Positions 2,691 through 50,432 of a stretch of 64,000 nucleotides of DNA are shown here, one piece after another. The position numbers and the translations under genes are program-made. Each line of letters begins with the position of its first letter. Position 1 is the first letter of the stretch. Where the stretch lies: the NCBI GenBank assembly GCA_017499595.2, contig CM039006.1, positions 1,302,001-1,366,000 of the forward strand, given 5' to 3'. The notes under the pieces are model-generated. The model did not search any database, was not told the DNA's origin, and was given only the letters and a program-made list of their open reading frames with translations. The stretch comes from Psilocybe cubensis. Lineage: Eukaryota.

Positions 2691-4618
2691 ATGGTCAACC
2701 GACTTATTGTTGAGGGCGCTGTACCCAAGGTCTCGGGACAGGCACCAGAGCGACTCGAAATCTCTGTCTTCCTCAAAGATATCCGACAATTCTCTCTTTA
2801 TATCCAAGCTCTTGGTACGTCTCGGATACATTGGTAGAGCATGTGGTTGAAAATATTTTTTCTGGTACAGTCGCCCTTTATAGTCAAGATAGAAACGATC
2901 CAGCATCTTTTTGGCAAATTGCTGGAATACACGGTCAACCATACGTCGACTATGATGGCACACCATGCGACGGGAATGAATATTGCGTTCACAGCACGGA
3001 TCTGTTCTCACCGTGGCATCGGCCATATGTCGTTCTCTTTGAGGTATTACTCAAATATTTACTCCATTTATCCTACTTATGTTATCCTATAGCAAGAGAT
3101 CCAGAAGTTGGCCCGGGAAATTGCGTCAACGTACAAGTACGATTGCGACTCGTGGATGGAATCAGCAGCTGCGTTACGCCAGCCGTACTGGGGCTGGGAT
3201 AAGATGGAGAGCGTAGTTCCTCCTGACGAAATCATCGTGGAGACAAATGTTCAAATTATGAAGCCAGATTGCAAATCACTAGTATTTGTTCCGAATCCTT
3301 TCTTGACGTACTACTACCCCGAAGGAGGAAACTCTTCCTTTGTTGAACATTTCAAATTTCGGCCAAATACTTCGCGGTACCCAAACACAAACTGGATCTC
3401 GCAGACAACGATGTTGAAGGCGTAAGTGTGTTTTTCTTATTTTAAAGGGTTGTGCCGATATTTTTTTATATTTACAGGGCGCTTCGAGCAGAAGCTCCAG
3501 CAATTGTAGAAAACACACAAAGGCTGTTCTCGCTGAAGACATGGCACGATTTTACTCTGGGAAGCAATGGAACCACAGGTCTAGAGGGCATCCATAACAC
3601 CATCCATTCCACTACAGGCGGTGCGAAAGGTAACATGGCGTACATTGAAGTAGCAGGCAAGTTTAAAGTAGAAAGGTGAACTTTCAATTTAATGCTAATT
3701 TATGACCTGCCATTACTCTCCAGCTTTTGATCCCATCTTCTGGTTACATCACACTCAAGTCGATCGGATTGCAGACTTGTGGTATAGATCTCATCGCTTA
3801 TGGGCAGAAAGCATAAAAGGTTCAGACATCCTTTACTTCAAAGAAAATAATCCATCTGCTCAAAGTCCACACTAGATTTATTGCCATTCAGAAAAACTCA
3901 AACCGACTACTGGCAATCTCCCGGCATCGTTGATACAGCGGATACCTTCAATTATCAATACGCAGGGAGAGCACCTAAAGCCTCTTCCTCAGAAGATGTC
4001 GCAGAGCCCGCAGAGGGTATATCTTCATTTGAATTATTATGTCAACCGAACTTAAATACTAATGCCGCCTCGTTCGTAGTAGCGCTTGAAGAATATTCAC
4101 ACGCGCCCACAAGTGGCACAATTTTAGAATGGAGTATTCGCGTGCAATGCAAACCATTCGCACTAGGCGGCAGTTTCTCGGTGTACATCTTCCTCGCCCC
4201 CACGGTGCCCCCCACTGATTCCGCCCAATGGCTTTTCGACCCCACGTTCGCCGGAACGGTCGATGTCTTCGCCAACACAAATCCTGAGCAATGTGCGAAC
4301 TGCACAAGCCATGCGAATGAGCTGATCAAGGGCTTTGTGCACATCAATCGTATATTCAAGAGTCGATCCGGAGCGCATTCCATCGACCCTGACGCTGTTT
4401 TGCCTTATCTTAGAAGCAACTTGAGCTGGGGCGTGGTCAAGGTAAGTGGAATTTTATTGTCCACCCCGCGTGGTGGTGTTCCAAATGGCTTACACAAAAC
4501 TATTTAGGCGTCGGGAGAAGTGGTTGAGATTGAAAAATTACCGTCACTTGAGGTGACGGCCATGTACACGCCGCTCAAACCTGAAATCACTCGGGGTCGG
4601 ACTGGAGGACATCTTTAA
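2691..4618 (+). CDS. Tyrosinase / polyphenol oxidase (type-3 copper) with fungal C-terminal shielding domain; 7 exons
   Basis: Approximate exons 2691-2814, 2871-3043, 3093-3421, 3478-3656, 3724-3819, 3876-4441, 4508-4618. CuA motifs GIHG, YCVH (Cys-X-His) and PWHRPY; LRQPYWGW; CuB motifs EGIHNTIH and AFDPIFWLHH; C-terminal CANC (CXXC) and TRGRTGG end typical of agaric PPOs. Confidence 0.93.
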
Positions 4619-4806
4619 GGAGGTGTAACTTGCATATCTTTGCTGCTTTTCTTTTCTTTTCTTTTCTTTCTCTCTTTCATTTCTCTAGCGCGATGTACTA
4701 AAATGACGGTGCCTTGAGACACCCGTGATAGATTGGCGATACATTTCTACCGGCTCTCTGCACGTTAAATACAGCTTTAAACGAAATTTATTTGCAAGAA
4801 CAAGAG

Positions 4807-6750
4807 AACTTCATTATAACCCATTGATCAATTGCCTAAATGTGCAACGGGAAGTAACCCGCCAATTGTCCGGTTTGATGAATTGAGAAATGAGAAATGA
4901 GAAATGACGAATTGATCCACTTGGGCGTCTACACTGATAAGCGCTCGTGAGTACTGACTTTGTTCAATTATTCTTTGATTTAGCGCCCGATGAGACGATC
5001 AGGCTGTGCTTTTTCATCGTGTTGCGGAGGACATAGCTTGAGCTCACATTTTAAATTCGAATACGAATTCTGGAGAGTCGAGATGGATATAAATGATAAT
5101 GTAAGGGTTCTTGCTATGCTTTTTCTTGGTGGGGTGGTGGTAAGGTGATGCGATTTTACTTTTTACTAGTACTTTTACTTTTACTTTTCAGCGGGAATCA
5201 CAGTGGGTGTTGCTTTGCTCTTTCCTCTTTTGCATTTCGCTCTTTTGCATTTTGCATTTTTCGTTTTCGTTTTGTATCTTTCGGAAATCATTCATGACTC
5301 ATGGGCATAATAGATTCGGGTCCTGCCAGCTCCTCGGGAGGAAGTCTGAGGAAGTGGATTTGTGTAACGTCGTCAACCCTCACCCTCACTCTCACCCTCA
5401 CCGTCCATCGAACGCGATTCTTAAGTTCTTCTATCTCATGCGATTGCAATTTACGATAACTCTTTTTCGTTTTTGAGTCTTGAGATACGTACGTTTGCTT
5501 TTCGCCGAGTTGGTCTTTTTTGCTGACAAGTATACCGCGGCGTTGGGTCTTGTCGGATCCTGACTGTGATTGTGATTGTGATTGTGATTTCCTCCGTTCC
5601 TCCGTTCTCCCTTGCGCTCAAGCATGTTGCAGTTGTATGCTGGTTTAATCGTTCTTTTTCACAGGGCTCGGGATGCGGTGTAAAGGGGTTCAGACCGTCT
5701 GAGTCAGTTCAGATCTAGAGCGCACACGCTCTCGCTCTCGCGTGCTCAACGACACTCTGCTGCGCCGCTGCGCCGCTGTGCCGCTGTGCTGTATCGCTGG
5801 CAGAATGACAATGGTCGAATACAATTTGGTGGGATTCGAATAAGCAAGAAATGACGTCTCTGCCTCCGCCTCCGCCTCGCTGGCCTGTCAATATTGGCTG
5901 GTCATTTTATTCGAATTTTCGCACGCACCGCGTAGTGACTAGTACTCGAAGGGTGGTGCAGAACTGGCTATGGAAAGTGGGAAGTGGAACTGGTCCTAGG
6001 TCCTCCGGTTTTACGCCTGGTCGCCTGGTTGTGCCCGGGTTTTCTGGCGCGCACGAATTTATTTTTTTTGGCTTCTGGATTCTGGATTCTGGGCTCTGGA
6101 TTCTGGGCTCTGGGCTCTGGGTTCAATTGTGGATTGATGCATCGATGAGTTGGTCTCCGGCCGGGATTGTGTTGTGTTGTATCATATTGTGTTGTATGTA
6201 TTTGCGAGGTCGGTAGAGTGCATGTGCTATGTTTTTGGGATATCTGCTACTGTTAGCATGCGTGGATGGTTTGGTAGGTAAGGCAACACTTAGAACTTAG
6301 AGGTTAATTTGGTCAACTTCTGGTTCTGGTTCTGGTTGATTTCTGGTTTTGGTTAATTTCTGGTTCTGGTTTTATCGGTAAAAAATTGGGGAGGAGAAGA
6401 TTCAAGAAGAATTTGGATTCGTATTTGGATTTGGGTGCAACGTGCATGAGAGCCGAACACGATGCATTTTCGGATGTGTGGATGATGCGATGAGGATCTT
6501 CCCTGTGTGCGGGATTTTCCATATTGTTTACTTGCAGAGGATGGCTGGCTGGTGACTCTGAAGGCCATCGTCCGACCTCTTTTGATGGGATTCGATATTC
6601 CCGGCGGCAGTGACTGTGTATTTTATTTTTGTGGTTGCGTCACTCCGGAGGAGACTGCTCTGTAAAGTATACACGGCCCTACGTAGTGGGTTTATCATGC
6701 AGTATAAATATATATTTTTCCGGGCACACTCGAAAAATAAGCTTCTGCGC
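4807..6750. repeat. Left arm of a long degenerate inverted repeat (partner ~14740-16277)
   Basis: 4807-5146 matches the reverse complement of ~15962-16277 (shared strings include cccgccaattgtccggtttgatgaa, tctacactgataagcgctcgtgagt and gtgttgcggagg). Further collinear matches at ~5548-5690, ~5720-5810, ~6030-6055, ~6150-6190 (ttggtctccggccggg), ~6318-6400 and ~6700. Confidence 0.85.
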
Positions 6751-7299
6751 GCTTCGTCTGGAGAGTAGACTAGGCGCAGTCGCAGTGGGAGGAGAGGCAA
6801 GGGAGAAAGGGAGATGGCTGTGTGAAAAAAGCAGATAAAGGCGATTAGATAAGGAGGCCTGTTCCTTGGGATGTAGATCCGAGGGATCAGAAAATGGCAA
6901 GTGTTCCCTTCTGTTCTTGTCGCTTGTTGGCCTGTTTGCAGCCTGCCGTCCAATCCTAACGCACACACGGCACGGGCTCGGGCACGCGTTTCGTCTCCTC
7001 TCACGACGGCGGTGCATCCTACCCCCCCAACAACGACGAGGTCCAGGACGAGGAGAGACCAGTGGAAGCTGAGCTAAGCTAATCGGTGTAAGTGCCCAGC
7101 TGCTTCTCCTTCTTCTTGCCCTTGTCCATCCAGGGGAAGAGGGAAGGGAAGGAGGGGGCGTGTGGCTTCCCAATTTGTTTGCAAACGCGTGTTTTTACTC
7201 AACATGAGGCAACAATCTCAGGGCTTTCCCGGGAGGTCGTGATCCAACACCCTACGGAGAGGAGGGGTCATATCCGACTATTCTATTCCACACAGATAG

Positions 7300-7760
7300 C
7301 TAGCTAGCTAGCTGGCCGCGCACACGCACACACGCACGCAACGCAACGTAGTCAGGTCAGGTTAGGTCAGGCCAGGTCAGGTCAGGTCAGGTAGGTTAGG
7401 TCAGGTCAGGCCAGTCTGTTCCTGGAAAGCAGCGACCCATCTGACCCACCCACCCGCAATCCAGATCCTCTGAATCCCCTGCACACCCCACCTGCCCCCC
7501 TCCCCCTCCCATCCGACATCGGCACATCCGCTTCCCTTCTCAGCACACCCACACAACCCGTGCATCCGCCCGCTATCCCAATCGTCCGCTATCGCGCAAC
7601 GGCCCAACCAGAAGAAGAAGAAGTTGAAGAGGGGAAAAAAGGAAGGGCGTTGGATTACTGGATAGGATAGGACTCAGATTTTGGGAGGGGAGAATTGTCG
7701 TTTTTTTGTTTCTTTTTCGATTCGATTCGATTCGATTTCGATTTCGATTGAATTCAATTC
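7300..7760. repeat. Microsatellite cluster upstream of the 7762 gene: (TAGC)n, (GTCAG)n, (TTCGA)n
   Basis: Directly visible tandem arrays at ~7297-7312, ~7351-7410 and ~7716-7760. Confidence 0.85.
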
Positions 7761-7761
7761 G

Positions 7762-10700
7762 ATGCCAGCGGTGTCGCAGCATGTGCCATCATCCACCCTC
7801 CCCCCCACCAGCACCAACACCAACACCAATGCATACCGCCCATCCGCATCCGACGCACTCGACACCTTCGAGCCCGACGCCGCATGGGTCGACGAGATGC
7901 GCAAGAAGATCGAGGAGAGCCTGCACTCCATGGTCCTCGACGCACAGCAGAACATGGAGGCGCAGCTCATGCGCACGGTCGTCTCAATCGACGAGCGGAA
8001 TAGGATCAAGAACGAGTATTTCGCTGCCATGCACAATGTCAAAGCTATCGCGACCGATGCGCTCCGTGCCGAAGTCGCAGAGGAGAGGAAACGCCGTAAA
8101 AAGGTTCGTCTTCCTCGCTTGTCTACGCTATTGTGATCATCGCTAGAAAACAAGCTTTTTTTTTACTTCTTTTTTTCACTTTCTTTTTCTTTTGGGGTTT
8201 TTTGGGGTTTTGTTTTGTTTTGTTATAGCAAGCGGAGATTGAGAATTTGAGCAAGACATTTATCAAGCAGCCCGCGCAGAGCATCGACGGTTTGGCCATC
8301 GAGAGCCCGACGGACTTTCGCGTCGGCTCGGTTCCCATCAGCGATCCCCTCCCACCTCCCCATGCTCATGCTCATACGCATACGTATGCCCCGCTCCAAT
8401 CACACACACCGCCAATTCCGCACATCCACGATGAGCACGAGCGGAGCTCGCCCCGCCCGCGCGCCTCTGTTTCTGCATCTGCCTCGGCCTCGGCCTCTGC
8501 ATCTGCATCCGCCTCTGCGCGGCGCACGTCGACATCGGATGTAAAGAGCACGAGCACATCCACATCTACCGCATCACCCCGCGATCGCGATCTTCCTCCC
8601 GACCCCGCTGCGCCCCCATCTCGCCGGCACAGCACCACCACCAAACACGCACACGCACATGGACACGGACACGGGCAAGCACGCGGGTACGGGCAAACAC
8701 CCGCACCCGCACACGCACACGCACAGGAGGACGCTGACGAGCCCGACGTGATGGCTTACCACCACCTCCCTCCGCCAGCCCCGCCGGCGGCGCCAAGGAG
8801 CCACCGCAACTCCATCGACCGCCCTGCGTTCCCGCCCCCGCCCCCGCCCCCGCCGTTCGCGATGGCCGATCGGACGGCTGAAGGGGGATCAGGGGTATCA
8901 TCGCCATCACCATCAGCGGGGGCGGGGCACGGGCACGGGCACGGCGCATCGCTTCGGCGCTCGTCTGGCTCGATCCGGTCTGGTTCGGAGCGGGGTAGTG
9001 CCGCTCCTGCTCCTGCTCCTGCATCTGGTTCTGGTTCTGTAGCGGATATGGTGTGGAAGCCGACGATCAGCGTCAGTGCGGGTGAGGAGAGCGGATCGGG
9101 TACGGGGAGTGCTGCGTCCAAGTATGCGCACGGGCACAGGGACAGGGACAGAGAACACCGAGAACTCAGGGAACAGCACAGAGAACTCAGGGAGCTGAGA
9201 GAGCAGCACAGGGACCAGCAGCAACAGCAACAAGTAGGCCGGCGCGGGAGCTCCGCGAGTCTCACGAGCCTCACGAGCTTGACGAGCCTGACGAGTCTGA
9301 CGAGTATGCGCTCGACGGGGTCGAGCGTGGGTGTGGGTGTGCGCCCGTCGATTTCGGAGACTATTCCGGAGAGGGTTGATGGGTTTGAGGGCGAGGGCGA
9401 GGGCGAGGGGGAAGGTGATCTTGAGGGCGGGGGTGATGGAGCTGGAGTTGGAAGAGGAGGTGGTGATAAACACGATAGACGAAGATCGTCGGATAAAGCG
9501 CCGCGCGACAAAGATAAAGACAAAGATAAAGAGAAGCGCGCGATGAAACGGAGGGAGAGGGATAGAGAGAGGGAGAGGGAGAGGGAGAGTCGGCGCACGC
9601 GCACGCGCACGCCCGATATCGATGTGTCCCAGCTGCCTCCTGCATCGTCATCGTCTGCTACGACGACTGCGTCTTCGGCGACGATGCAGTACGCTACGGC
9701 TGCTTCGTCATCGACAACGTCCATACCAACCTCTACGTCTACGTCTACGTCTATGGCTACAGCTACAGGTACAGGTACATCTATACCAACATCTACATCT
9801 ACATCTATACCAACATCTACATCTACATCTATACCGACATCTACAGCTACACCAATGAGACGCTCATCCAAATCATCCTTTGCCCCTCCTCCTCCTCCAC
9901 GCTCGCCTTACACCTCTAACGACATCCCCGACCGCGACCGCGACAGGGAGAGGGAGAGGGAGTACACTGCGCCCATACCGCCGAGCAGACCTATGAGCGC
10001 GAAAGCGCCGTTTGCCGAATACGAGTACCCGCACGACTACGAGTATGCGGTTCAGTATACACCTGATTATCCGCGCGAGCATTCGCAGGATTATCAGCAC
10101 GAGTATCAGAACGAGTATTCGCAAGATTATCAACACGAGTATGATTATCCGCATCAGCATCCGGCGGTGTCGGTGTCGGTGTCGCGTAAGGCGTCGTTTA
10201 CGCATGATGAGCGGCGGCGCGAGTGGGAGCGCGAGAGGGATAGTCTCAGGGAGAGGGAGAGGGATGGTCTGAGGGATGGTTTGAGAGAGAGGGATAGTCT
10301 GAGGGAGAGAGATAGTTTGAGGGAACGAGAAAGGGACCGCGAGAGGGAGAGGGAGAGGGAACGCGAGAGAGATAGGGAAAGGGAGAGGGGGAGGGAAAGA
10401 GAGTATTGGGACGATGAGCGTGATCGGGATAGGGATCGTGAGCGCTGGGAGCGTGAGCGCGAGAGGGAACGGGAAAGGGAATATGTACCCCGCGAACGTG
10501 ATGCGCCGTGGGATCGTGAGCGCGACCCACGAGAACGCGACAGGGAAAGAGAGATATACACCGACACACGCTCCTACCCGTACCCATCCCCGCGCCCTGG
10601 AGCCGGACCCGTATACGGCTCTTCTCCATCCAACACCAGTGCTGGTGGGCTCAATGCGCGGAATGCGCCGTACGCGCATACGCATGAGTACGTCCCTCCG

Positions 10701-13700
10701 CCTGAGCCTGCGTACGAGCGCGAGCGCGAGCACGCAGGGATGGCGCCGGGGTCGGCGCAGGGTATGTATTATGTCCCGCCTGCGCAGAGTGCGTTTGAGG
10801 AGTGGGATGCTAGGGATAGCGTTCGGGAGCGGGATAGGGATAGGGATAGGGATAGCATTAGAGAGAGAGAAAGGGATAGAGAAAGAGAAAGAGAACGAGA
10901 AAGAGAAGCAGGCCGCCCGATTCCCAGCCGACAACACTCGTTTACGACCAGGCGAGGAGGAGATGATGTATCTGTATTGGGTTTGTGTTTTTTTTTTTAA
11001 TTCCTATCCGTTGTTGACTGTCTTTCTTTGATATGGATAGATGGATACAATATGCGATATGGTAGTGTTGGGAGTATCAGCAGCGGCGGCGTTGGCGCTA
11101 CTGCAGGGAGCGCGGGAAGCAACACTGTGCCTATACCACCTCGCCACCCACCAACAGCAGCAGCAACAAGCAGCACCCTCAACAGCAACAACCAAACGGA
11201 CGACGGACCACAGCAACCCGCATGGACGAACTGGATCAACGAGAGCGGCGCAGCCGCAGTCGCCGGCCTCGCCCGAAGGTCAAGCGACGCGCGCCATCGC
11301 ACCGTCTCGGGGGATACACTGCCTAGTGTTAGTGTTAGTATCGCCGCCGCCGCTGCTAGTGGTGGCTTTGCGTCGTCAGCACGATCGCCTCCGCCGCCTA
11401 CCTCTGCTTCGTCGTCGCATTCGCATTCGCACCACCCACATCCACACGCGTCACCGAGCAAGAAGGCCGCGCATCGAGCCGGTGCCGCCCCCGCGTCCGC
11501 CCCGCACTCGCACGCCCACGCCCACGCCCACGCCCACGCCAAACCTCCCGCACACAGCTACGCCCACGCACGCGGCGGCGGCCCGCGCCCGCGCCCTCGC
11601 ACCACCGCGCGCGGCGCGCCCAAGCGGCCAGCTGCGGCGTACGACGACGATATCGTGTACCCCGGAGAAGCGTTCTACGACACGGATGATGTGGCGGTTG
11701 CCGTGCCGCCTCCGCCGCTGAGGAGACCGCATCGCCGGCGGAAGCCTGCTTTGGTTGAGAGTGATGATGGGTCTGAAGAGGATGAGGGTGAAGATGAGGG
11801 TGAAGATGCGGATGAGGAGGATGAGGAGGATGATGATGAGGAAGAGGAGGAGGAAGAGGAGGGGGAGGGGTATGTACATGATGAAGATGAGGAGGACGAG
11901 GATGAGGATGAGGATGAGGATGAAGACGCGATGCACGGCGACGACGAAGCTGTGTTCAGAGGTAAACGCGAGGATGAGCGGTGGCGCTCCGCGCACGAGG
12001 CACAGCGTCTCCGCGAGCTGGAAGAGGCGGCGCGGAAGCAGAAGGAGCTCGAGGAGGAAGCGGCGCGGAAGCAGCGGGAGATCGAGGAGGAGGCGGCGCG
12101 CAAGCAGCGGGAGCTCGAGGAGAAGGAGGCCGAGGTGAAGCGCCAGGCGGAGGAGGTGAAGCGGAAGGAGGAGGAGTTGAGGGTGATTTTGGAGGCTGCG
12201 AGGAAGCAGAGGGAGTTGGAGGAGAAGGAGGCGGAGGTGCGCAGGAAGGAAGAGGAGGTGAAGAGGAAGGAGGAGGAGGCGGAGATGAAGAGGAGGGAGG
12301 ACGAGCAGAAGGAGGTCGAGCGCGCGCGTATGGCCGAGGAGCTCAAGCGCCAGAAGGAGGAGGCGGAGAAGAAGGAGGCGGAGGTCCTGCGCTTGTCGGA
12401 GGAGGCGAACCGGAAGGCGAAAGAGGCGAAGAAGAAGGAGGCGGATTTGCGCAAGAAGGAGGCGCAGACGAAGATTAAGGAGCGCGAGCTCAAGGAGGAG
12501 GCGGAGCAGACGCGGAGGTTGCGCGAGCAGGCTGAGCAGGCGACCCGCGCGGCGCAGGAGCGGCTTAGGTTGTTGGAGGAGGAGACGGCGCGGAAGGAGC
12601 GCGAGGTGCGTGAGCGCGAGCTTGCTTTGACTCGTCGTGAAGAGGAGCTGAGGCGTCGCGAGGAAGAGGCGCGGCTCAAGCAGGAGGAGGCGCGTTTGAA
12701 GGAAGAGGAAGCGCGGCTGAAAGAGGAAGAGGCGCGGCTGAAAGAGGAGGAGACACGCAGGAAGGAAGAGGAGCTCGCCGCGATGAAACAGCAGGATGAG
12801 CGCAGGCGGCAGCGCGAAGAAGAGCGCAGGAGGGAAATGCTCAAGACCGAGGAGGAGAAGAACGCGCGTATCAGGGAGGAGGAGGAGGCTAAGCGTAAAG
12901 AGGCGCAGAAGCGCGACGAGCAGAGAAAGGCCGCAGAGGCCCGCAAACGTCTCGAGGATGAGGAGAAGCGTAAAAAGGCCGAGGAGGAACAGCGCCTGCG
13001 CGATAATTTTGAGCTCTCGAGCAGCATTGGCTTTGATATTGACGAGACCATGATCGAGGAGCAGGCGTACCTCATGCAGCAGTTGAAGTATGAGGCGCAG
13101 GCTGCGAAGATCATATCCAGCCGCGAGGAGCGCAAGCGCAACGACAGCTTTGGCAACGACGGTCTCTGGTCTTCCTCCTCCTCCTCCCACTTTGTCCCCT
13201 CCTCCTCCCCGGGCAACCCCACTTCTGCCTTTCCTCCCAAGAAGCCGAACGGCTCTGCAGCCACCGCACCCACCTCTGCGCGTACGCCGACTACACCCTC
13301 TGGATGGACGACGACGAGCAACAAGCCCTTCTCAACCGCCTCACCCACATCCGCGCGGTCCACTCCCGGCGCAGGCGCGATACCAGCCGGTAAACCCAGG
13401 ACAGGCTCCGTCAGCTCTGGCACATACCCCGCCACCGCCGCCGCCGCGTCGTCCTCCTCGCCGCACGCAGGCTCATTCTCCGAGGCGGACCACGCGCGCC
13501 GGCAAGCTGAATTTGCGAATAGCCAGCAAGAGCGCTTTAGACAGGAACAGGAGATGCTCGAGACGCGCAGGCAGATGAAAGCTGCTGGGAAGCCGCAGAC
13601 GAAGCAGGAGGCGCTGCGCGTGATGGATTATCACGATACGCTGTGGGCGCGACTGTCCTCTGCCGCTGTAGCTGACACTGGCTCGGGTGCGGGGCTGGGC

Positions 13701-14006
13701 TGGGCGGATATCCCCTGGCCGATGTGGAAGCCGCCTTCAACACCAGACGACATCTCCTCGGCACTCATCAGCGCCTACGTCCTATCCCCTTACACCAACA
13801 AGTCGGGCAAGTCAGCGAAAGACCGTGTGAAAGAGCACATCAAGCGGTGGCATCCTGATAGATTCGAGACGCAGCATTTGGTGAGGGTCGCAGAGGGGGA
13901 GAGGGAGAAGGTCAAGTTGGGAGCGGGGAATGTGACGAGGTGTTTGAATGATTTGTTGAAGAAGGAGAATGAGAATAGTAGTAGTGTTAATATATTTGGA
14001 GATTGA
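7762..14006 (+). CDS. Giant (~2019 aa) low-complexity protein: N-terminal helical domain, RE/RD tracts, acidic tract, long E/R/K charged helix, C-terminal WHPDRF (HPD/J-like, NFKBIL1 C-terminus-like) domain
   Basis: Three exons join in frame: 7762-8103, 8229-10980, 11041-14006 (GT-AG introns of 125 and 60 nt; 6060 nt of CDS). The C-terminus reads WADIPWP...KDRVKEHIKRWHPDRF...VKLGAGNVTRCLNDL. The family assignment is from recall. Confidence 0.85.
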
Positions 14007-14739
14007 GTGGTGCTGTTTTTTGGGTTGGGTTTGGGGAAGGGGAGAGGGAGAGGGAGGCAGGGGACTTTGTGGTTATCGTGTATGATTTTTGGTTTTGAGT
14101 TTTTGAGTTTTTTGACACCCACATCATTGTTCATTTTTTTTTTTTTTCATTTTTTTCTTTGTCTTCTTCTTTCGAATTCTCTAACCTTTTACCGGTACCT
14201 TTTTTCTATGTAGCCAAATTGTCTCTCTCTCTGTCTCTCCCACCCCCTCATCTCATCTCATCTCATTTCACCTCATTTTCATTGTTTTTTTTTTCTTTTT
14301 CTCTTTCTTTCTTTCTTTCTTTCATGTACGATACCCCCATTTCTAACCAATGTCAATGTCAATGTATGAATACATATCAGATAACAGATAAAACTTCTTC
14401 AAAGAATATATATCATATGATGTGTGCCTATCATCCATTCTGTTCTTCAATTCTTTGCTCTTTTCGTTTTCGGTTTCTTTTTGGTATGACTTTACTTATT
14501 TTACTAACACTGGAAGTTCGCGCACGCCTCGTCTCGTTTCCTGAACCTTCCCCTTCCCATCACCCATCACTGTACACTTCCCTTCCCCCTCCCCCTCCCT
14601 TTCCACACTTCACTTCGCTTCCCCTCCCAGTACCAGTACCACGTAACTTTCCCTCTAATATAAATAGGCCCCATCGTTCCATTTCTTCCCCCAGTGAATA
14701 TCATGCCACTGTTACATGTGCAGTGTCCTACGCTAAAAC

Positions 14740-16277
14740 ATCCTTTCGTATGTGTGTGTATGTTTTATTTATATACAATTTCTGGAACTTCTACTCGAAA
14801 AGCGCCCAACCCTCAGGTTGTAAATACCACAAAAAATCGGTACAACCCCGGGTTCCTTTTGAAAATATAGGAAAATTTAAAATATACTTACGCCGGACAT
14901 CTGAATCTTCTGGCAGAACCAGAAACTAGAACCAGAAATCAGAACCAGAACCAGAACCAGAACCAGAAACCAAAAAGGTTACCCAGAATTTCAAGCCAGA
15001 GTTTACCCAGAACCAATCATAATACATAAGTAGTCTTAGTCTTAGTCTTAGCCTTAGCCTTAGTCTTACTAATACTAATACTAGTCCATCTGCATCGCCT
15101 AAGCCTTGAATCAAAGCATGCAAAACAGGCTGCAGAAGCAGCCAAAAATGTTTAGAGAATGGATAATCCCATTGACAACTTGCTAACCGCGTATCGTATG
15201 GTGGTATGCAAGCGCTAAGCATGCACTATGACTAACATAGTAACAACAGCAGATGCAGCAAATGGAATCCATGCCAGCCACGGCTAGCCACAGTGGGGGG
15301 GGGGTACTAAAACTCGCCCACGACCCAAGAACTGTAACACTTACCAACGCAAACGCAATACAATACAATACAAGCCCGGCCGGAGACCAAATTAAAGTTC
15401 GATATTCGATCACATTTTCCCAGCCACCAGCCACCAGCCATAATATAATCCAGGTAAATGGGAAGTAGAAGGAGGCGTGCACGCCGGAATTTAACCCAGG
15501 CATGGACGGTAGGGACCTCGTCAAGACCTTGTTGTTGTCCGAAGCAAATTGACTAGAAACTACAAACGGCGGCAAATCGCATGCATTGGTCTGAGTCTGA
15601 GTCTCTGAGTCTCTGAGTCTCTGAGTCTGAGTCTGGATAAGGCACGCACGGCGTCGTTTCTGAAATGGCTTCGGATCGCAGAAGTTGGGGCATTGTCGTC
15701 TGACAGCGATGCAGCAGCACGGCGACCTTGAACATGTGAACAGTGAGAGCAAGCGAGAGCGTGTGTGCTTTTGAATCCTATTCCTGAATCCCAATCCCTT
15801 TACACAGAACCCCCCTGATCCTGAACGTGTGAAGAAGAACGATAAATCAGCCTGCAACTGCAACACGCTTTGAAGGTAAGGGACCCGGGAGCCGTGCAGG
15901 AACGAAAGGAAATCATAATCACAAAATCATTATCACAATCATGATCCGACAAGAGCCTCCAACCTTACCACTCCATCAAGTATCAACGACGTATCCGGAG
16001 GAGGAAAAGGCCTTGCATCTGTCTCAAGGGACCAGAGTTCATATTCGAATTTTAAGTGTGAGCTCAAACTATGGCCTCCGCAACACAATGAAAAGGCACA
16101 GCCTGATCGACTCATCGAGCGCTAAATTAAAGAATAAATTGAACGAAGTCAGGACTCACGAGCGCTTATCAGTGTAGATGCCTCAGTGGATCAGTGCGTC
16201 ATTTCTCATTTCTCATTTCATCAAACCGGACAATTGGCGGGTGACTTCACGTTGCACGTTTGGGTAGTAATGAAGTT
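14740..16277. repeat. Right arm of the long degenerate inverted repeat (partner 4807-~6750)
   Basis: Reverse-complement matches to the left arm in collinear order, for example the (AGAACC)n tract at ~14915-14970 mirroring (GGTTCT)n at ~6318-6370, and cccggccggagaccaa at ~15375-15390. Confidence 0.85.
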
Positions 16278-19200
16278 GAAAAGATGGAAGGCGGAAGTTG
16301 GATGTTGGACGTCGATACGTAGTACCTATACAGTAACATCTAGAAAAGCGTACAATAAGCTCTTGAGCTCTGACTGATGAGATAGATACAAGGTAGCAAA
16401 CGCACACGTTGAAACTTCACTGACGAATTTGATGCAGATTCCAGATTCCATATTAGAATCCGAGGTATCTGTCCCTTTACGAAATGCCGTAGAGCACCCT
16501 GAAAAGTCAAAAGAGTCATGCGAAGTCTAATCTTCTAAAGCGCAAAGAAAGTCCAAGTTCTGACGACATCCTAGTGGAAGGATCAAAACACCTTATACCT
16601 TATGTATCGCGAACCACCCATCGACACCACCTGCCCATGCATCATGCACAAAACTCTTCACTTCAATTTCAACGCACACATAGACAAACCCTGATCTGCT
16701 CCCATGTCTGAATTACGAAGACACGAAGATAGCCAGCACCTGAATCGGATCAGACACACCCGGATCCCAAAGAGAAAAAAAAATCGGGAAGACATTCATG
16801 CACTCACCATGTATGCATTCATTTACAGGCCTCAAGCCTTGTGCATAAAAGGCACATCCTCATGTCCCCAAAAAATCTACAATTTCCAACGCGTGCTCGC
16901 TTCAAAAAAGTTTTTCTAATTCAAATTCAATCAGCGTGAGCCAGGGTCAAGCTGGGTCAAGACGCGTGCCCACTGCCGCCGGATTGCAGCGCCACGAGGC
17001 GTAGCGCGTTGCGCGTTGCATCTAACACGTTACCACACCTGCGTATGTGATGGAAAGATGGGGTAAGCACTAAGCGTGGACCGCTCACCGGAGAATATTA
17101 GATATTGTCGGCCGGAGAAAAATAAAGGAATATATGGGTAGGAAATATATTTGAGGGTAGGGTAGGTGTAGCCGGAGGGAAATTCGGGGAGATGGGGGAG
17201 GGTCGGAGGTCGCGCTGGCTCGTGCTGCTGATTCAGATTGGCTTAGCGTAGGTGTAGGCGTAGATGTAAGCGTAGGAGAGACTCCATCCTGACAGCGAGT
17301 ATCAGTGGAAGATCTGTTTTGCAGTGAGTTGGGTAGTATGTATGTGGAGATGTAGTTCCATCTGGAAAATACCTTTCGTTTGTCGAAAGAACATGAGAGT
17401 ACCATGGAGCAACCAAGGAGCGAGATGAAAGCCTTTCAGTAGAGTCACAATCTTTCACTGGCAGAAGGAGCGTTGACCGAAGCGAAACTTGAGTGTAGTG
17501 CAATGCTCACCTCGTAGCTGGTCATTTGACTCTGCGAGGACGTGTTTTACCTCGTGTATAATCCTAATAGAAGGATTCGAACAGACATACCTCATTTCGA
17601 AGCTTGTATATGCGGGTCACTTGATAGGAAATGGGCGTCTTCGGCCATGACTTTTGTTAGCAGTGGAAAAGGCAGGATCTAAAAGACTCCTGGCTCGGAC
17701 AAGGTGGGAAGTATGAGAACATTCTTCTCCTCAAGGAAGATGGTCAAGCCGAAAGATACTCACTGAAAATGCCAGGCAACGGAAGGGAAAGGGTCGTAGG
17801 AATCGGCAATAAAAACGATCGTATGAGCCCACAAGTTTACCGCCGACACGGTTTATTTTGGGACACAGTCGAAGGCGAGGCAATGACGCGTGGACGCCCG
17901 TTCCGTTTATGTAGGAGGTTATACTGGACACACAGGGTGATTATTTGCGAAAGACTCTTTTTAAATTGACAGCTTGACCAGCGACTTATATCCACCGTAT
18001 CATCGTACGCGGAGCGCAGCACTATGAATGGTTAACTTCGTACGGGTGTAAAGTGGTTGAAAGCGTTTTACCTTAAGCCTCGTTCGTGCTCTGAAGAACC
18101 GGCGATGTTGATAGATGCGATCGATAGGTGGAACGAGAAGTTTTTATGAGCGGGTAGAACGTGGGCGAAAGGAAATGGTACTCACTTTTCCGCAATCTGC
18201 CTGCCAATTCTATCCACCCGAACTCGTTCTGCTGGGTCTGGCGGCATAAAGTTATATGGGATGGCACGACACTGCTTCCCGTCGGCGAGCTGACTGATTT
18301 TGGTATGAAAGTGAGGTATGAACGCGTGAATATTAATTCCATCAGTGCAGGACACGCCACTTTTCTGGCCCGTGAATAACGCATAAACATTAGACTGAAT
18401 CCATTGCGGTGCACAGTGCACTGCACGCAGCCTTGGTTCAAAACTGCGCAAGTAATCGACTTCATAATCGGATCCCTATAATGAAAAATTGGAGACTCGT
18501 TAGCGGGGTTGGTTGACAAAGGATAAAAAGAAATTGATAGTTAGAATGAAATCATCCGAAAGATGAATTATTCAAAGTAAATAATTATGACGCTCTCACC
18601 ATGTGGTGAGCTTCCATTGCGATTCAGAGAAGCATCATCCTAACCGTGGAAAGGGTGTATCCTATCAGAGGCAAAAGTATGCTTGATATGGGTGCTTGGT
18701 CTGAGGCGCATCATGCACTCAATCCCATCGTATACCATTAATATCACGAATTCGGCCGATGTTGTTGACCTCAGAGTGAAATTAGTCTGTCGGCTGTTGA
18801 AGAAGATGCTGCGCGTCATTCAGGGCAGAGAGGTACGGCATAACACGTCTAAACCACGAGATAGACGCGCATGTTGTCGAGTCATAATACAACAACAAAG
18901 AGTAGACTTCTGTGTGTTTGTTTGTATCGCGCATATACTTACCCCATCCCGAAGAAGCTTGAGATGCGGTTTCAGATAGCAGTGATATGATACCGGAGTA
19001 GAAGCTTGACGGGGAGATGAAATGAAGTGCGCTCGAATTAATCCAGCTTGCCCGAAGTGCTTGAACAAGGTCAAGTGGACCCACTCCCTGAGTGGGACAA
19101 CGACGGTACGTGACAAATAAGCGATATGTGTCCATCGTGGATCACCCTGACGAGCATGCGCAAGTCACAACCCAACAACGACCAGGACCATGTCGGGAAC

Positions 19201-19587
19201 TCTCCCATCGATAGGGTATCCACAATGGAGATTCTCGCGAGGTGTTAGAGCTGATTGGCTCGAAATGGAACTGGGCAAAGGGTGGACCGACTATTCACAC
19301 CGCGTGTCGACGACGTCGAACGGCGTATTCCACGGCGAGCTCCCGGTACACACCTACCAAAAACACTAACCCTTGACCACCAGCGGATCCATTACGGCGA
19401 AGGACCGGGATACAACTCGTACAATCTCCGAAATATAGGACTACAATCAGTTTTCGGCTGCCCGCCAGAAACACGAGGCACCCCGTTTTGTTCCCAACTT
19501 CTCTCCCTTTGCAACTTTTAGTACTGGCTTGTCAACGCTTTCTCCCGCTTTCTCCTTCTCTTTCTTGGTCCCCTTCTGCTTACAGCC

Positions 19588-25877: not shown

Positions 25878-28504
25878 ATGCTTTCCGGCCTCAAAAAACA
25901 TGTGGTGTCTAAAGATAACAACAAAGCCAAGGACCTTCGTGGGGAAACTGAATATATGACTGGCGCCTCTGGCCTCACAACAGATTTTGGCGTCAAAATA
26001 GCAGACGACGATAATTGGTCAGTCAATATGTTGCGATTTTTTCATGGCCGTCTAATGCCCCCTTTCCTTCAGGTTGAGGTTGTCCAACGCCGAAGACATT
26101 GGTCCATCATTGCTAGAAGATCATATTGGCAGGGAGAAGATTCATCGCTTCGATCATGAGCGCATTCCTGAACGGGTTATTCATGCTCGAGGCGCTGGTG
26201 CTCATGGTCATTTTCGTGTTTTCGACAACCGAGCTGCAAAGTGGACTTCGGCACCTGTGTTGACAGACCCTGCTCGTACAACCCCTATTTTCGTTAGGTT
26301 CAGCACCGTCCAGGGTTCTCGTGGCAGTGCGGCAAGTTGTCGCATTCCTTTGGCAGCTCACTGAAAGTAATACTTGTTGACTCTAGGATAGCGTTCGTGA
26401 CGTGCGAGGTTTTGCGGTCAAGTTCTACACTGAGGAAGGGAATTGGGACCTTGTGGGCAACGACATCCCTGTCTTCTTTATTCAGGACGCCATCAAGTTT
26501 CCAGATCTTGTCCACGCCGTCAAACCGGAACCTCACAACGAGGTGCCCCAAGCTCAGAGCGCCCACAACAATTTTTGGGATTATGCTGGACTGCAACCTG
26601 AGTGTACGTTAATGATAATTTCCAGGAGATTGAATCTTACCACTTCACCGTAGCGGCTCATATGATTATGTGGGTCATGTCCGATAGAGGTGAGTAGTTC
26701 TTCGGTTTCTTGTTTAATGCAATCATAAACCTACCATTATTCAGGTATACCTCGGTCATACCGGATGATGCAGGGCTTTGGCGTCAACACGTACACCCTC
26801 ATCAATGCGGAAAACAAACGAGTTTTTGTCAAATTTCATATGACACCCGAGCTTGGTGTCCATAGCTTTGTATGGGATGAAGCTTTGAAACTAGCTGGTC
26901 AGGATCCTGGTATGCAGCAGAGATTCCTCTCTATGCTTCACACATTCAATAATTTTATAGACTTTCACCGAAAGGATTTGAACGAAGCTATCGAAAGTGG
27001 GTGCCATCCGAAATGGACACTGGGTATACAAGTTATTGAGGAAAAAGACGAACATTCATTTGACTTCGACATTCTTGATGCAACAAAGATATGGCCGGAA
27101 TCACTCGTCCCTGTTCAACCCATTGGCGAATTTTGTCTTGACCGAGTTGTTGAAGAGTACTTCCCTCAAACCGAGCAAGTGGCGTTTTGCACGAGTCATG
27201 TTGTTCCTGGTATAGGTTTCAGTGACGACCCTCTTCTCCAAGGCCGCAATTTCTCATACTTTGATACCCAAATTACTAGGCTGGGTATCAATTGGCAAGA
27301 GGTAAGTGTTGTCGTGTTGTCAAAAATTGCCGCTCGTTGAGCTGGTTATAGCTTCCCATCAATCGCCCCATATGCCCTGTTATGAACCATCATCGCGATG
27401 GCTCTTCTCGGCACCGTATCACTCCAGGTTCTATCAATTATTGGCCCAATCGAGAGAATATAGGACACCCAGTGTCGCCTCTCCAAGGAGGTTACGCAGA
27501 GTGTGTAATGCATTTGGTTTCCAAAGACGCATGGTTAACTTTTGCTCAGGTTCAACCAGAGGGTAGAAGGCATCAAGCAACGCGCCCGTGGTGCAAAGTT
27601 CCAGGAGCATTACAATCAGGCCCAATTGTTTTACAATTCTCTTTCCGACTATGAGAAGAGTCACCTTGTAGCTGCCTTGTCCTTCGAATTGGGGCACTGC
27701 GATGACCACCGTGTCTATGAGGGGTACACCAAGCTTCTCAACAACATCGATTTCGACTTAGCGAAGACTGTTGCGGAGAAGGTGAATGGCGTAGTACCCA
27801 ACAAGCCGCTGCGCGTCAACGATGGCAAGACAGAGTCCACCCTTTCGCAGACTCATTTCGCATCCAAAAAACCCACCATCGCGACTAGGCGTGTCGCCAT
27901 TCTCATCGCCGATGGGTTCAATATGGTCGAAGTTGAAGCCGTTCGCGCTGCTCTGAAAAGTGCGAAGGCCACTTCTTGGATCATCGGTCCGAGGCGCGGT
28001 AAGATTTCTTCGAAGGGAACTATCGTTTCAGGTGCCGGGATAGTTGCCGACCATTACTTTGAAGACCAAAGGTCCACGATGTTTGATGCTTTATACATTC
28101 CTTCTGGGCCTGAGCATGTTAAGTCACTCATGGTTAACGGGCGTGTCGTTCATTGGATTCGCGAGGCCTTTGGACACTGCAAAGTTATTGGTGCCATCGG
28201 CGAAGGTGTGTTCTACAATAACCTGACGAGCGAAATGCTGATGAAAAATCGTAAAGCTGTTGCGGCTTTGAACCACGCCCTCGAAATTCCCGAACTTCAA
28301 TTATCGAAGTCAGAGACAGACCACGTTGTGTCTTCCTATGGTGTAGTTACTGCTGGGAAGTACGATGTCGCATCGGCAGCGGTGGACGTTCTTAAAATTG
28401 CTCCCGGCCCCAAGGGTTTTGTTTCGAATTTTGCGTATGAGATGAGCAAACATAGGTGCTATGCGCGTGAACTCGACGGTTTGACGAGTCAGGTTGCATA
28501 CTAA
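25878..28504 (+). CDS. Large-subunit monofunctional heme catalase (KatE/CatA/CAT-1 type) with C-terminal DJ-1/GATase-like domain; multi-exon
   Basis: [15 protein letters not shown] (distal His), [39 protein letters not shown] (proximal Tyr), and C-terminal [11 protein letters not shown]...FDALYIPSG...[10 protein letters not shown]. No signal peptide is evident. Confidence 0.96.
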
Positions 28505-39990: not shown

Positions 39991-40984
39991 GGCGAAGAAG
40001 TTATTGCCTCCCTGCCAGGACGGCAATTGTCTGGGTGCTCCCCCAGAACCAAGGACAGAAACGATTAGAGGGAAGATAAAAGGTCGACGGGGAGAAGAAA
40101 TCGGAGCATCAGCGGACCCAGGCATTTAAAGATGTTCATTCAACCCAACATCCGTCTAAGTATACTGCGACCACTCTCCACCCGATTGGTGACAGGGTTT
40201 CTCACCGATGGGTGTCTAATGAGCGGATAAATTGTGAATTGAGATACCCTTAGACCTGGCACACCTAAAAAAGTATGTGGCGCGATGGAACATCTGCCTG
40301 ATTTGTCCCTGGCGATTGAGTCGTGCAATGGGCAGCACGGTCGTTATCATCGCCTCCCTGATTGATTTCAAAGTTCCCTCGTGCCATCAGTTTAAAATAG
40401 AGCATGCGCTTCAATAGGACCTGTCCAAGGAGGGAAGGCAACTTGCCCGACCTATAATATCTCAGTGTTAGCCATGCTATTAAGTCAGGAATTCGACGAA
40501 TGTGCATCACCATGAGACAAGGAAGATTTATGTATGAGAGATAAAGAAATGTCCATGGGTAACCAATGGACGGGTGTGACGTTTGGTGTCCTATATTTGA
40601 CCTTGTGCTCGGTGCTGCGAGCCCTCATCCTCGGTACCGAGTTACTGTACCACACGCCTGATATTTTTGTCTTGGACGTCATTGTAAATGCTCATGACTT
40701 TCCGTTGGTGTCCTTCATGTCGCTTTGGGATGGATATATGAACACCTCTGAGACGTCGTGCCTATGTCAATGAGTCAATCATTCATCCAGAATTGAAGTT
40801 CGCTAGGTCGAGAGCTCCGGGTAGTGGTAATCAGCTAATATACAGAATATTTACCTTTTTGACGAGAGAATGAGAAAAGCAAAACAATGCGAGGATACAG
40901 CTGCCAGCTGGCGGCGGGTGTTGAAGACAATGATTACTTACACATCAATTACACATCGCCACCAAGGTTTGGGTGATGCCATCA

Positions 40985-41346
40985 TGTGACAGAAGTGACT
41001 ATCGTGACTGTGAGGTAACGGTAGTGTCGTCCTGGCACACGGAGAGTTTGGGATAGCGAAGCTTGAGCACACAATAGACAGGTAAAGGGTGTTCGTTGTT
41101 CACTGGGGTTCTACAGTAAAAACAAGCCTGTATTTATACTGTAGGACTATTGGGCTAATGTAATCATGGTCCGAATAAAGCAACAGAGCCAAGGGGAAAT
41201 GGGGGAGATGAATAAGACAGATCATGGCCGAAGGTGAAGTAATCTAATCAGCTTGGAGGTGTCGACGGAATGGGAATGGAGTCGAACAGATAAGATAATG
41301 ACAAAAAGGGAAGGTGAGGAAGGTGGGAAAAGTTCAGAATGTCACA
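40985..41346 (-). repeat. 3' LTR
   Basis: No difference seen by eye from 50071-50432. Contains TATAAATA on the minus strand. Confidence 0.97.
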
Positions 41347-41405
41347 TACGCCCTCCGGGTATTGTTGAAGCAATGCCCGAATAAACAATAGAGAGAAATT
41401 GATGA

Positions 41406-42353
41406 TTAAGGAAGGGTGGGGTTCGAAGGTCCGGCCTGGGAAGCAGAGGAATTGTTGGAAGGAGTATTGCGGTTGTTGCGAGAATAGCGAGGCTTAGCGC
41501 CCGTGGGATCTTGACGGCGCTTGAAGTTGCGTTGGTGAAAATATTGGTCGTTTCGCTTACGGCGCGCGGTTTCGGCAGACGCGGAGAGCAATAGCATATC
41601 GTTAAAGAGGCGTCCGGCACCATGAGAGGTGTTGAGTAACGTGGGATCAACATCGGGCAGAGCGCGCGAGTTACGAGAGGTTGGAGTCGGTTTGGGATGA
41701 ATGGACTGTGCAACACGAGGGACGGGCAAGGTGAAGAGTTCTAGGGTGATGGGGACACCATCTGTAACGTAGCGGCGGGTAGTATCGTTCCAAAACGCGA
41801 ATCGCTCGGGTCCTACGGCGTATAGATTGAATAACTGGGATATTGTAGGGTATCCGTAAGGAATATATGATAATGCAACAGTGGGATCGGTTTGAGCACG
41901 GAGCTTGCGGTCGTAGGCGCAAAAAATTGAGAGTAATTTGGTGGTAATAGCTTGTTGGGCGTCGAACTCGGTAAAGCCGACCGTCGGTTCAAAGAAAACG
42001 AATCGATTTTTGGCAATGCGACGGACACCGGGATGAGGGATGGTAGGCAGCGACGGGAAGGATAACCCATCAGTGACAGTGGTGGGGAGCGCAATGGGTC
42101 CGACAGTGTTTTCAGCGACCGCAGGCGCGGCCGGCGGGGTGACTACAGCATTAGAGGCGGCGTCGTTGGTTGGGTTTGCAGGAGGAGCGACGACGGGAGT
42201 AGGGTTGGAAGTAGTAGACGAAGAGAGGGCATGGTTGAAGAATAGATCGATGTTGAAATTAGGGTCAGATAGGTTGGAGATGTTGGGTGCGAGGTTGGAA
42301 AAGGAGTCCGAGGAAGAAGAAGTGTCCATGGTGTTATCAGAAGTTGAAGTCAT
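41406..42353 (-). CDS. Extra 315-aa ORF of the retrotransposon, between pol and the 3' LTR; function unknown
   Basis: Same sense as pol and starts 20 nt after the pol stop. S/T/P/A-rich N-terminus, globular core (FCAYDRKLR...IPYGYPTISQLFN...RFAFW) and basic R/N-rich C-terminus. Confidence 0.7.
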   Translation of the reverse strand: MTSTSDNTMDTSSSSDSFSNLAPNISNLSDPNFNIDLFFNHALSSSTTSNPTPVVAPPANPTNDAASNAVVTPPAAPAVAENTVGPIALPTTVTDGLSFPSLPTIPHPGVRRIAKNRFVFFEPTVGFTEFDAQQAITTKLLSIFCAYDRKLRAQTDPTVALSYIPYGYPTISQLFNLYAVGPERFAFWNDTTRRYVTDGVPITLELFTLPVPRVAQSIHPKPTPTSRNSRALPDVDPTLLNTSHGAGRLFNDMLLLSASAETARRKRNDQYFHQRNFKRRQDPTGAKPRYSRNNRNTPSNNSSASQAGPSNPTLP

Positions 42354-42372
42354 TTCGATGGAAGTGATAGGA

Positions 42373-49902: not shown

Positions 49903-50070
49903 AATATTCAGAATATAATTTCAAAGATGTTACTTACGTGGGGTATTGGTTTGATGGATGTTGGATGCGGCTGCCTTGATGTGGGTGGCTCTGGTTGATC
50001 AGACCAAAGGGTTCCGAACGTCGAGGCGGCGAGAGAGGAGATTTAAAAGTTTAGAGTACTGTCAAAAATA

Positions 50071-50432
50071 TGTGACAGAAGTGACTATCGTGACTGTGAG
50101 GTAACGGTAGTGTCGTCCTGGCACACGGAGAGTTTGGGATAGCGAAGCTTGAGCACACAATAGACAGGTAAAGGGTGTTCGTTGTTCACTGGGGTTCTAC
50201 AGTAAAAACAAGCCTGTATTTATACTGTAGGACTATTGGGCTAATGTAATCATGGTCCGAATAAAGCAACAGAGCCAAGGGGAAATGGGGGAGATGAATA
50301 AGACAGATCATGGCCGAAGGTGAAGTAATCTAATCAGCTTGGAGGTGTCGACGGAATGGGAATGGAGTCGAACAGATAAGATAATGACAAAAAGGGAAGG
50401 TGAGGAAGGTGGGAAAAGTTCAGAATGTCACA
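50071..50432 (-). repeat. 5' LTR
   Basis: Direct repeat of 40985-41346. Confidence 0.97.

Follow-up and report, generated by a model that had tools for sequence, protein, structure and literature searches.

How a single large gene came to stand between two long, non-coding inverted arms is the question raised by a module of about 11.5 kb in the mushroom Psilocybe cubensis. The module occupies positions 4807 to 16277 of a stretch of 64,000 nt (assembly GCA_017499595.2, contig CM039006.1, positions 1,302,001 to 1,366,000 of the forward strand); this whole stretch is the window of our analysis, and all coordinates refer to it. A sequence-only reading had described one giant gene enclosed by degenerate inverted-repeat arms and had offered three explanations: a non-autonomous, gene-carrying transposon with long terminal inverted repeats (TIRs), an invertible cassette, or an inverted duplication of the gene's own upstream region. 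That interpretation is partly supported by our results. The feature is real and had been accurately observed, its nature is most likely ordinary, and the third explanation, read as a duplication, in inverted orientation, of non-coding DNA beside the gene, fits the data, whereas the transposon and the cassette fit them poorly. We give about an even chance to the reading that the arms are the relic of one old local inverted duplication beside a host gene.

Two collinear, diverged arms form a real inverted repeat

Several independent comparisons confirmed the inverted repeat. Self-blastn of the window returned four distinct non-trivial self-matches once mirror duplicates were dropped, two of which are the inverted repeat (4835-5073 vs 16264-16032, 87.5%, E 1.6e-80; 5545-5663 vs 15957-15828, 77%, E 5e-17). 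The remaining two are an identical 363-nt direct pair (40984-41346/50070-50432) and an internal repeat of the coiled-coil coding region. Self-alignment reaches beyond simple repeats, and the claim that the arms are collinear reverse-complement copies was borne out both by this search and by permissive pairwise blastn, which recovered four collinear minus-strand blocks: an outermost one at 4835-5088/16264-16017, a second and a third with E 8e-24 and E 1.8e-7, and an innermost one that is mostly a TTCTGG microsatellite (Table 1). A repeat finder reported 39 inverted pairs in all, and the best 25 that we examined include 4835-4900/16199-16264 (92%), 4887-4969/16137-16219 (92%), and 4968-5088/16017-16137 (85%).

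Gapped alignment brings the outer block to exact ends, AACTTCATTA at 4807 and TAATGAAGTT at 16277, precisely where the similarity had been said to stop abruptly. This outer block is 88% identical between the arms (232 matches, 32 mismatches comprising 19 transitions and 13 transversions, and 23 gap columns). Counted over aligned columns, identity falls to 80% in the second block and 78% in the third, and the alignment of each block contains 23-44 gap columns. The outer parts are thus the best conserved and the inner ones patchier, as had been described, but the gradient from outer to inner (88 to 80 to 78%) is modest. The inward extent had been overestimated: instead of reaching ~6750 and ~14740, the arms showed no similarity inward of 6372 and 14914 in permissive pairwise blastn, which leaves a left arm of ~1.57 kb and a right arm of ~1.36 kb. 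Pairwise blastn also detected no remnant of a second, inverted gene copy between 14006 and 14914.

Much of each arm is unique sequence; the two collinear copies consist of unique and repeated DNA intermixed. They are rich in tandem repeats, with several different microsatellites and a threefold GAGAAAT subrepeat ~80 nt from the arm end. The left arm alone carries ~400 extra low-complexity bases, and its third block holds a 33-nt island at 91%. An intron-like motif, GTGAGT...CTGAC...TAG, is conserved in both outer cores.

The arms are non-coding and show single-copy depth

Six-frame comparison of the arms met stops in all frames on both sides. One open frame of 247 codons (15183-15926, minus strand) was considered as a gene and rejected: it has no start before residue ~143, an odd composition, and no Pfam match. 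The gene at 7762-14006 had been described as the only one enclosed and the module as free of a transposase; in agreement, no transposase or recombinase domain was found in the 11 + 11 window frames scanned with Pfam.

With the arms masked, blastn (word size 7, E ≤ 0.01) found no third arm copy in the remaining ~61 kb of the window, and the sole match of a core-profile nhmmer search over the rest of the window was noise (E 1.3). The mean raw-read depth in run X13, counted at 90% likeness or better, was 23.8 and 22.4 over the arms and 24.4 over the gene; neither arm has extra copies at that likeness in the X13 genome.

The immediate flanks of the module, GAACAAGAG and GAAAAGATG, had been taken to give at best a decayed target-site duplication. 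They match at 5 of 9 positions, and a comparison of all lengths from 2 to 12 found no exact direct repeat on the two sides of the module. The closest matches are 5/8 and 5/9 (uncorrected binomial P ~0.03-0.05), with 4/10 and 5/11 at other lengths, and both flanks are purine-rich. As 11 lengths were tried, the match is not significant, and we do not uphold the duplication.

The right junction is conserved and the left junction is polymorphic

Three other runs, X5, X9, and X13 (the last carrying the same species label), were compared with the window by placing reads or contigs at a likeness of at least 90%, and the arms or parts of them were found in all three. The right junction is conserved in two of these runs. 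In X9, a single 13.6-kb contig is collinear through 14333-14571, 14644-16759, and 16780-17500, with 41 differing letters in the 2,116-nt middle piece (~2%); in X5, one contig is collinear through 15854-16500.

The left junction, by comparison, is polymorphic, with extra DNA exactly at 4805/4807 in X13 and X5. In X13, 40 reads (local depth ~44) diverge after 4805 into sequence absent from the window, and a search of the window with the first 20 letters of this loose end, allowing up to 3 mismatches, found no match. An X5 contig of depth 10.9 likewise leaves the window sequence at the left junction for 283 letters, and a second signal of ~6.3 depth units is window-like there; these depth columns suggest that X5 is heterozygous at this junction. 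Both runs keep the left arm from 4807/4808 onward, with variants.

Moreover, 13 reads of X13 and one X5 contig join 4808 to 16386 on opposite strands, the shorter side of the joint being 22 letters long. As we read this joint, the extra left DNA ends against the arm in an inverted copy of 16386-16407, a 22-mer that lies beyond the right arm behind a 108-nt spacer (Table 1). By our own arithmetic, the chance of a 22-nt match at that joint is ~3e-6. Reading the joint instead as left flank followed by the reverse complement of 16365-16386 was rejected, being unfit for the 40-read consensus. If our reading of the joint is right, the inverted homology once passed AACTTCATTA, and the window haplotype appears to have lost the outer left part; just 22 nt of this inverted extension beyond the arm end are visible at the 90% threshold.

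The arms differ from each other by 12% in the outer core and by 20-22% in the inner blocks, a divergence several-fold above the ~2% that separates the window from X9. From these sequence comparisons, the arms appear to evolve independently and to predate the strain splits. Among the X13 variants at arm-aligned columns, three of the six read off carry the right arm's base, as expected if the arms have simply diverged independently since an event that preceded the strain split.

Other differences between strains were also seen. In X13, 28-37 reads break at each of 5590, 6073, and 6106 in the left arm into unlike sequence, so the left arm is structurally variable between strains, mostly beside microsatellites. 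No X9 contig was placed on 3500-4900 (the tyrosinase end and the outer left arm) though the right arm is fully covered; this may be a structural difference or a mere filter effect, and the hole proves nothing. Two further opposite-strand joints, 7808/9438 and 9022/14561, were discarded as inversions, as they lie in low-complexity coding repeats with sides of 20-22 nt and are treated as cross-matches.

A full-length ortholog lies between the arms

The enclosed gene has three coding exons (Table 1) and encodes a low-complexity protein whose N-terminal part is conserved, as is its C-terminal domain, which bears a WHPDRF motif. Transcript structure was taken from run X10, whose RNA nature is a guess supported by its GT..AG joints. 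Such joints occur at 7087/7222 and 10979/11040, in X10 alone, and a second X10 record skips 8104-8232, which we read as the second intron. X10 contigs cover 5929-6771, including the third block of the left arm, and then run from 6774 or earlier through 14121. Together, contigs and joints point to a leader of ~1.8 kb with its own intron, begun inside the left arm. A 5' leader of this length with a 134-nt intron seems long for a fungus, and it is drawn from the presumed RNA of X10 only. The right arm lies beyond the 3' end of the gene, and no transcript was seen there in this single RNA-like run.

Using the C-terminal 235 residues, we found 45 homologs at E ≤ 0.001 among 8000 scored candidates. 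These proteins are ~400-1800 aa long and come from Gymnopilus, Crassisporium, Coprinopsis, Pleurotus, Armillaria, and others (Agaricales and other Agaricomycetes). In a Gymnopilus junonius protein, residues 2-100 correspond to exon 1 (E 4e-20), and further islands of collinear similarity to it lie in the middle of the enclosed protein. On these alignments, the 'giant gene' is a complete ancestral Agaricales gene grown by low-complexity repeats, and no captured fragment.

The product has 2019 aa, compared with ~1400 aa in its Gymnopilus homologs, and the excess consists of low-complexity RE/RD, TS, and E/K coiled-coil sequence. Strains differ by in-frame indels within 8229-13300 (for example 6 nt at 9136, 12 nt at 9731, and 30 nt at 10133). 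The WHPDRF-bearing domain is encoded at 13299-14003, and one source names its Coprinopsis marcescibilis homolog a 'J domain-containing protein'. A search of this domain for DnaJ gave no Pfam match at E ≤ 0.01, and a PDB sequence search with it gave three chance-level matches only (E 0.18-0.26).

Origin of the arms

Under the reading that we favor at about an even chance, a single local inverted duplication would have copied ~1.4 kb or more of intergenic DNA, and the two copies would have come to flank a resident gene of the host, an Agaricales mushroom. Each copy would then have drifted separately through 12-22% substitutions, numerous indels, and the expansion and loss of microsatellites, with the outcome of a well-aligned, non-repetitive outer core and inner islands of similarity. 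The left copy would now hold the start of the gene's long 5' leader and form part of its upstream region. At present the arms would neither move nor flip, and they would need no function.

Several lines of evidence argue for such a relic. The window holds two collinear inverted copies only, with none further in ~61 kb, and the X13 depth over both arms is that of single-copy DNA. There is no flanking duplication, no transposase, and no terminal repeat of the arms' own, a lack of transposition marks that is in keeping with a duplication relic. The enclosed gene is an ancestral resident, the arms appear to have evolved independently since before the strain splits, and the right junction is collinear in X9 and X5. 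Finally, homology that passes the supposed termini, with the joint as we read it, is expected of a segmental copy later trimmed by indels. Inverted segmental duplications are fold-back or template-switch products that are later trimmed by deletion. The arms share with them two collinear non-coding copies, a lack of target-site duplication and transposase, a fairly even divergence in alignable parts, and the presence of both copies in the strains examined; they differ in that the copies here flank an intact gene and form no short-spacer palindrome.

Several observations weigh against this duplication. At 88% identity, the outer core has survived somewhat better than the inner blocks at 78-80%, a difference not expected from a single neutral duplication, although microsatellite turnover may explain it. 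The triple GAGAAAT and the tandem-repeat-rich arms resemble Foldback or subterminal-repeat elements. The X13 depth count would miss any arm copies elsewhere in the genome with a likeness below 90%. Of 362 pattern matches in a metagenome scan with the C-terminal domain, 2 loci were confirmed, but their contigs (5,001 and 1,136 nt) are too short for synteny or flanking repeats. Lastly, three indel endpoints share the repeat's terminal nucleotide: the 4806/4807 loss, the 22-mer junction of X13 and X5, and the 108 nt after 16277. Such a coincidence of breakpoints would be easier to understand with AACTTCATTA as a transposon end where cuts occur, and it alone gives cause to retain a transposon reading.

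The alternative that survives best, which we hold to be possible but doubtful, is that each arm is a copy of some non-autonomous DNA element of low copy number (Foldback-like or of the subterminal-repeat kind), the two having come to lie in opposite orientation on either side of the gene, for example by a short-range hop, with the gene as a bystander. Both arms stop sharply on the identical ten bases, the outer end is their best conserved part, and they are full of tandem subrepeats, including the GAGAAAT triplet near the end. The presence/absence polymorphism of the left end in X13 and X5, together with the 108 nt exactly at the right end, is what a cutting site would leave. A section of PMC5751038 describes cut-and-paste elements as abundant in Agaricomycetes. 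Against such an element, the rest of the window has no third copy, X13 shows single-copy depth at 90% likeness or better, no transposase lies in the window, and neither arm contains an inverted repeat among the best 25 of the 39 inverted pairs. The 22-nt inverted match outside the arm ends also implies that copying exceeded the 'element'. CACTA ends and a 3-bp duplication are features of one element type, and the arm ends, checked by eye, show neither.

We consider it improbable that selection has kept the outer cores as paired functional non-coding elements (boundary elements, regulatory elements, or small RNA genes) bracketing the gene. The better conservation of the outer core and the intron-like motif present in both arms would agree with this idea. 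Rfam, however, gave no match, either for the whole window at the gathering score or for 4600-6900 even at E ≤ 1, and a tRNA scan found none. On folding the two cores together, compensatory pairs numbered 0 of 66 and 1 of 55, a count with little power from two sequences. The core is also no better preserved between strains than the sequence around it, with 8 differences listed in its 286 nt and 15 in the next 824 nt (an incomplete list), and neither core is covered in the RNA-like run X10.

Slightly less probable again is that the whole 11.5-kb module is, or once was, a composite long-TIR transposon that brought a complete gene between two convergent neighbors. In its relic form, AACTTCATTA would be a true transposon end, and a Foldback-like composite would have moved a complete, promoter-bearing host gene of 2019 aa, a proposal that we rate just as low; on this view, aberrant cutting at the element ends would have left the three indels at one nucleotide as its footprints. 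In its favor, a single gene is enclosed by long inverted ends, the module stands between a tyrosinase 3' end and a minus-strand transcript on the right, the flanks agree at 5/9 positions, and paired Foldback elements can mobilize large intervening segments of DNA in Drosophila, according to a passage of PMC6431247. The flank match is too poor for arms that are 88% alike, because at least four mismatches in nine at 14% divergence have a binomial probability of ~0.03, and it is not significant after 11 lengths. The cargo is a complete ancestral gene, as judged from its homologs, with three introns and a leader starting inside an arm. Single depth of coverage, the lack of a transposase and of a further window copy, and homology that appears to pass the 'termini' in other strains likewise tell against the gene-carrying transposon that had been proposed. 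In addition, G. junonius has homologs of both the enclosed gene and its right-hand neighbor, and these are listed on contigs of the same size, 532,785 nt, which is a hint of linkage and shows neither adjacency nor strictly one contig.

Target-site duplications of Mutator-like elements (MULEs) are 9-11 bp long. With Pack-MULEs and other non-autonomous Mutator-like elements, the module shares long TIRs (286 nt at 88%) around host-derived DNA; it differs in having no 9-11-bp target-site duplication, no MuDR-type transposase in the window, and single-copy depth (X13 at the same likeness threshold). The portion of PMC6431247 that concerns Pack-MULEs gives them as mostly 1-2 kb, with none reported above 7 kb, and as carriers of fragments, full-length gene capture being exceptionally rare, in contrast to the whole 6.2-kb gene with leader and introns found here. 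The long inverted arms with tandem subrepeats and best-kept outer ends are shared with Foldback elements and the Drosophila composite 'TE', but no copy family was detected in the window, there is no target duplication, and the arms are not arrays of one subrepeat. We found no report of Foldback elements in Agaricomycetes in a literature search that was not exhaustive.

That the arms serve as homologous-recombination substrates that flip the gene, the invertible cassette of the sequence-only reading, is very unlikely: geometry alone, inverted repeats around one gene, speaks for it, whereas the arms are at most 88% identical (12% diverged in the outer core) with many indels and so are not being homogenized, no recombinase was found nearby, and the X9 contig joins the inner unique sequence (14333-14900), the right arm, and the right flank in window order. 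X9 provides the sole contig informative on orientation, since the reads or contigs of X13 and X5 are too short to cross an arm. Because the leader starts in the left arm, a flip would part the gene from nothing useful. Regularly recombining repeats stay near-identical, and in flip-flop regions such as those of methylotrophic-yeast mating-type switching and the 2-micron plasmid both orientations coexist. The module resembles such regions in that inverted repeats bracket a gene-bearing segment in a fungus; it differs in its 12-22% diverged arms and in the same orientation of the one informative contig from another strain.

Features and neighbors of the module

Table 1. Coordinates of the arms, the enclosed gene, and adjacent features in the window
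Feature	Coordinates	Strand	Description
Tyrosinase, last exon (left neighbor)	3851..4507	+	Pfam Tyrosinase_C, E 1.7e-27
Left arm, outer core	4807..5092	+	Non-coding; 88% to reverse complement of 16013-16277; best conserved part
Left-arm-only stretch	5089..5544		Microsatellite-rich; right-arm counterpart only ~60 nt
Left arm, second block	5545..5779	+	Reverse-complement match to 15957-15703, E 8e-24; 80%
5' leader of enclosed gene (as read from X10 contigs)	5929..7761	+	Leader intron 7088-7221 (GT..AG)
Left arm, third block	6032..6202	+	Within the 5' leader read as transcribed; matches 15502-15336, 78%
Left arm, innermost block	6279..6372	+	Mostly (TTCTGG)n; matches 15056-14914
Enclosed gene	7762..14006	+	ATG 7762, stop 14006; introns 8104-8228 and 10981-11040; 2019 aa
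Right arm, innermost block	14914..15056	-	(AACCAG)n; pairwise blastn
Right arm, third block	15336..15502	-	Pairwise blastn and gapped alignment
Right arm, second block	15703..15957	-	Self-blastn, pairwise blastn, and gapped alignment
Right arm, outer core	16013..16277	-	Repeat finder, blastn, and gapped alignment
Spacer, right-arm end to 22-mer	16278..16385		108 nt; no left-side counterpart in X13 and X5
22-mer	16386..16407		Unique in window: single match, 0 expected by chance

To the left of the module, the tyrosinase stop lies 300 nt before the left arm, and the tyrosinase piece is 94% identical to a Psilocybe cubensis tyrosinase. The product of the right-hand gene is 100% identical to JR316_0009856 of Psilocybe cubensis. 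The GenBank accessions of the tyrosinase and the right-hand gene are two apart, which leaves room for one annotated protein between them. No Pfam-recognizable frame was found in the ~3.2 kb of 16278-19520, where 8 of the scanned frames lie. An X10 contig with a 59-nt CT..AC joint at 17313/17373 indicates a spliced minus-strand transcript right of the module.

Farther along the window, Pfam recognizes a long catalase at 27539-28504. A Ty3/gypsy retrotransposon occupies 40984-50432 on the minus strand, with a single open frame of 2515 codons (42373-49920, minus strand) for gag, protease, reverse transcriptase (RT), RNase H, and integrase. It is bounded by the 363-nt direct repeats noted above; as these are 100% identical, the insertion is probably very recent.

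Significance

In the literature searched, we found no paper pairing 'Psilocybe cubensis' with 'inverted repeat'. If the module were, against the low probability given above, a relic composite, it would mean that a long-TIR DNA element had captured and moved an entire gene in an Agaricomycete, an event of a kind called exceptionally rare in the relevant passage of PMC6431247, and the repeated breakage at one nucleotide would offer a handle on the cutting mechanism. If the arms are instead the relic of an old local inverted duplication, the locus records ordinary genome history, and it would serve as a caution that sharp-ended long inverted repeats around a gene without a transposase need not be mobile or invertible. 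Since its left junction is polymorphic, the locus would also provide a dated local marker for comparing Psilocybe strains.

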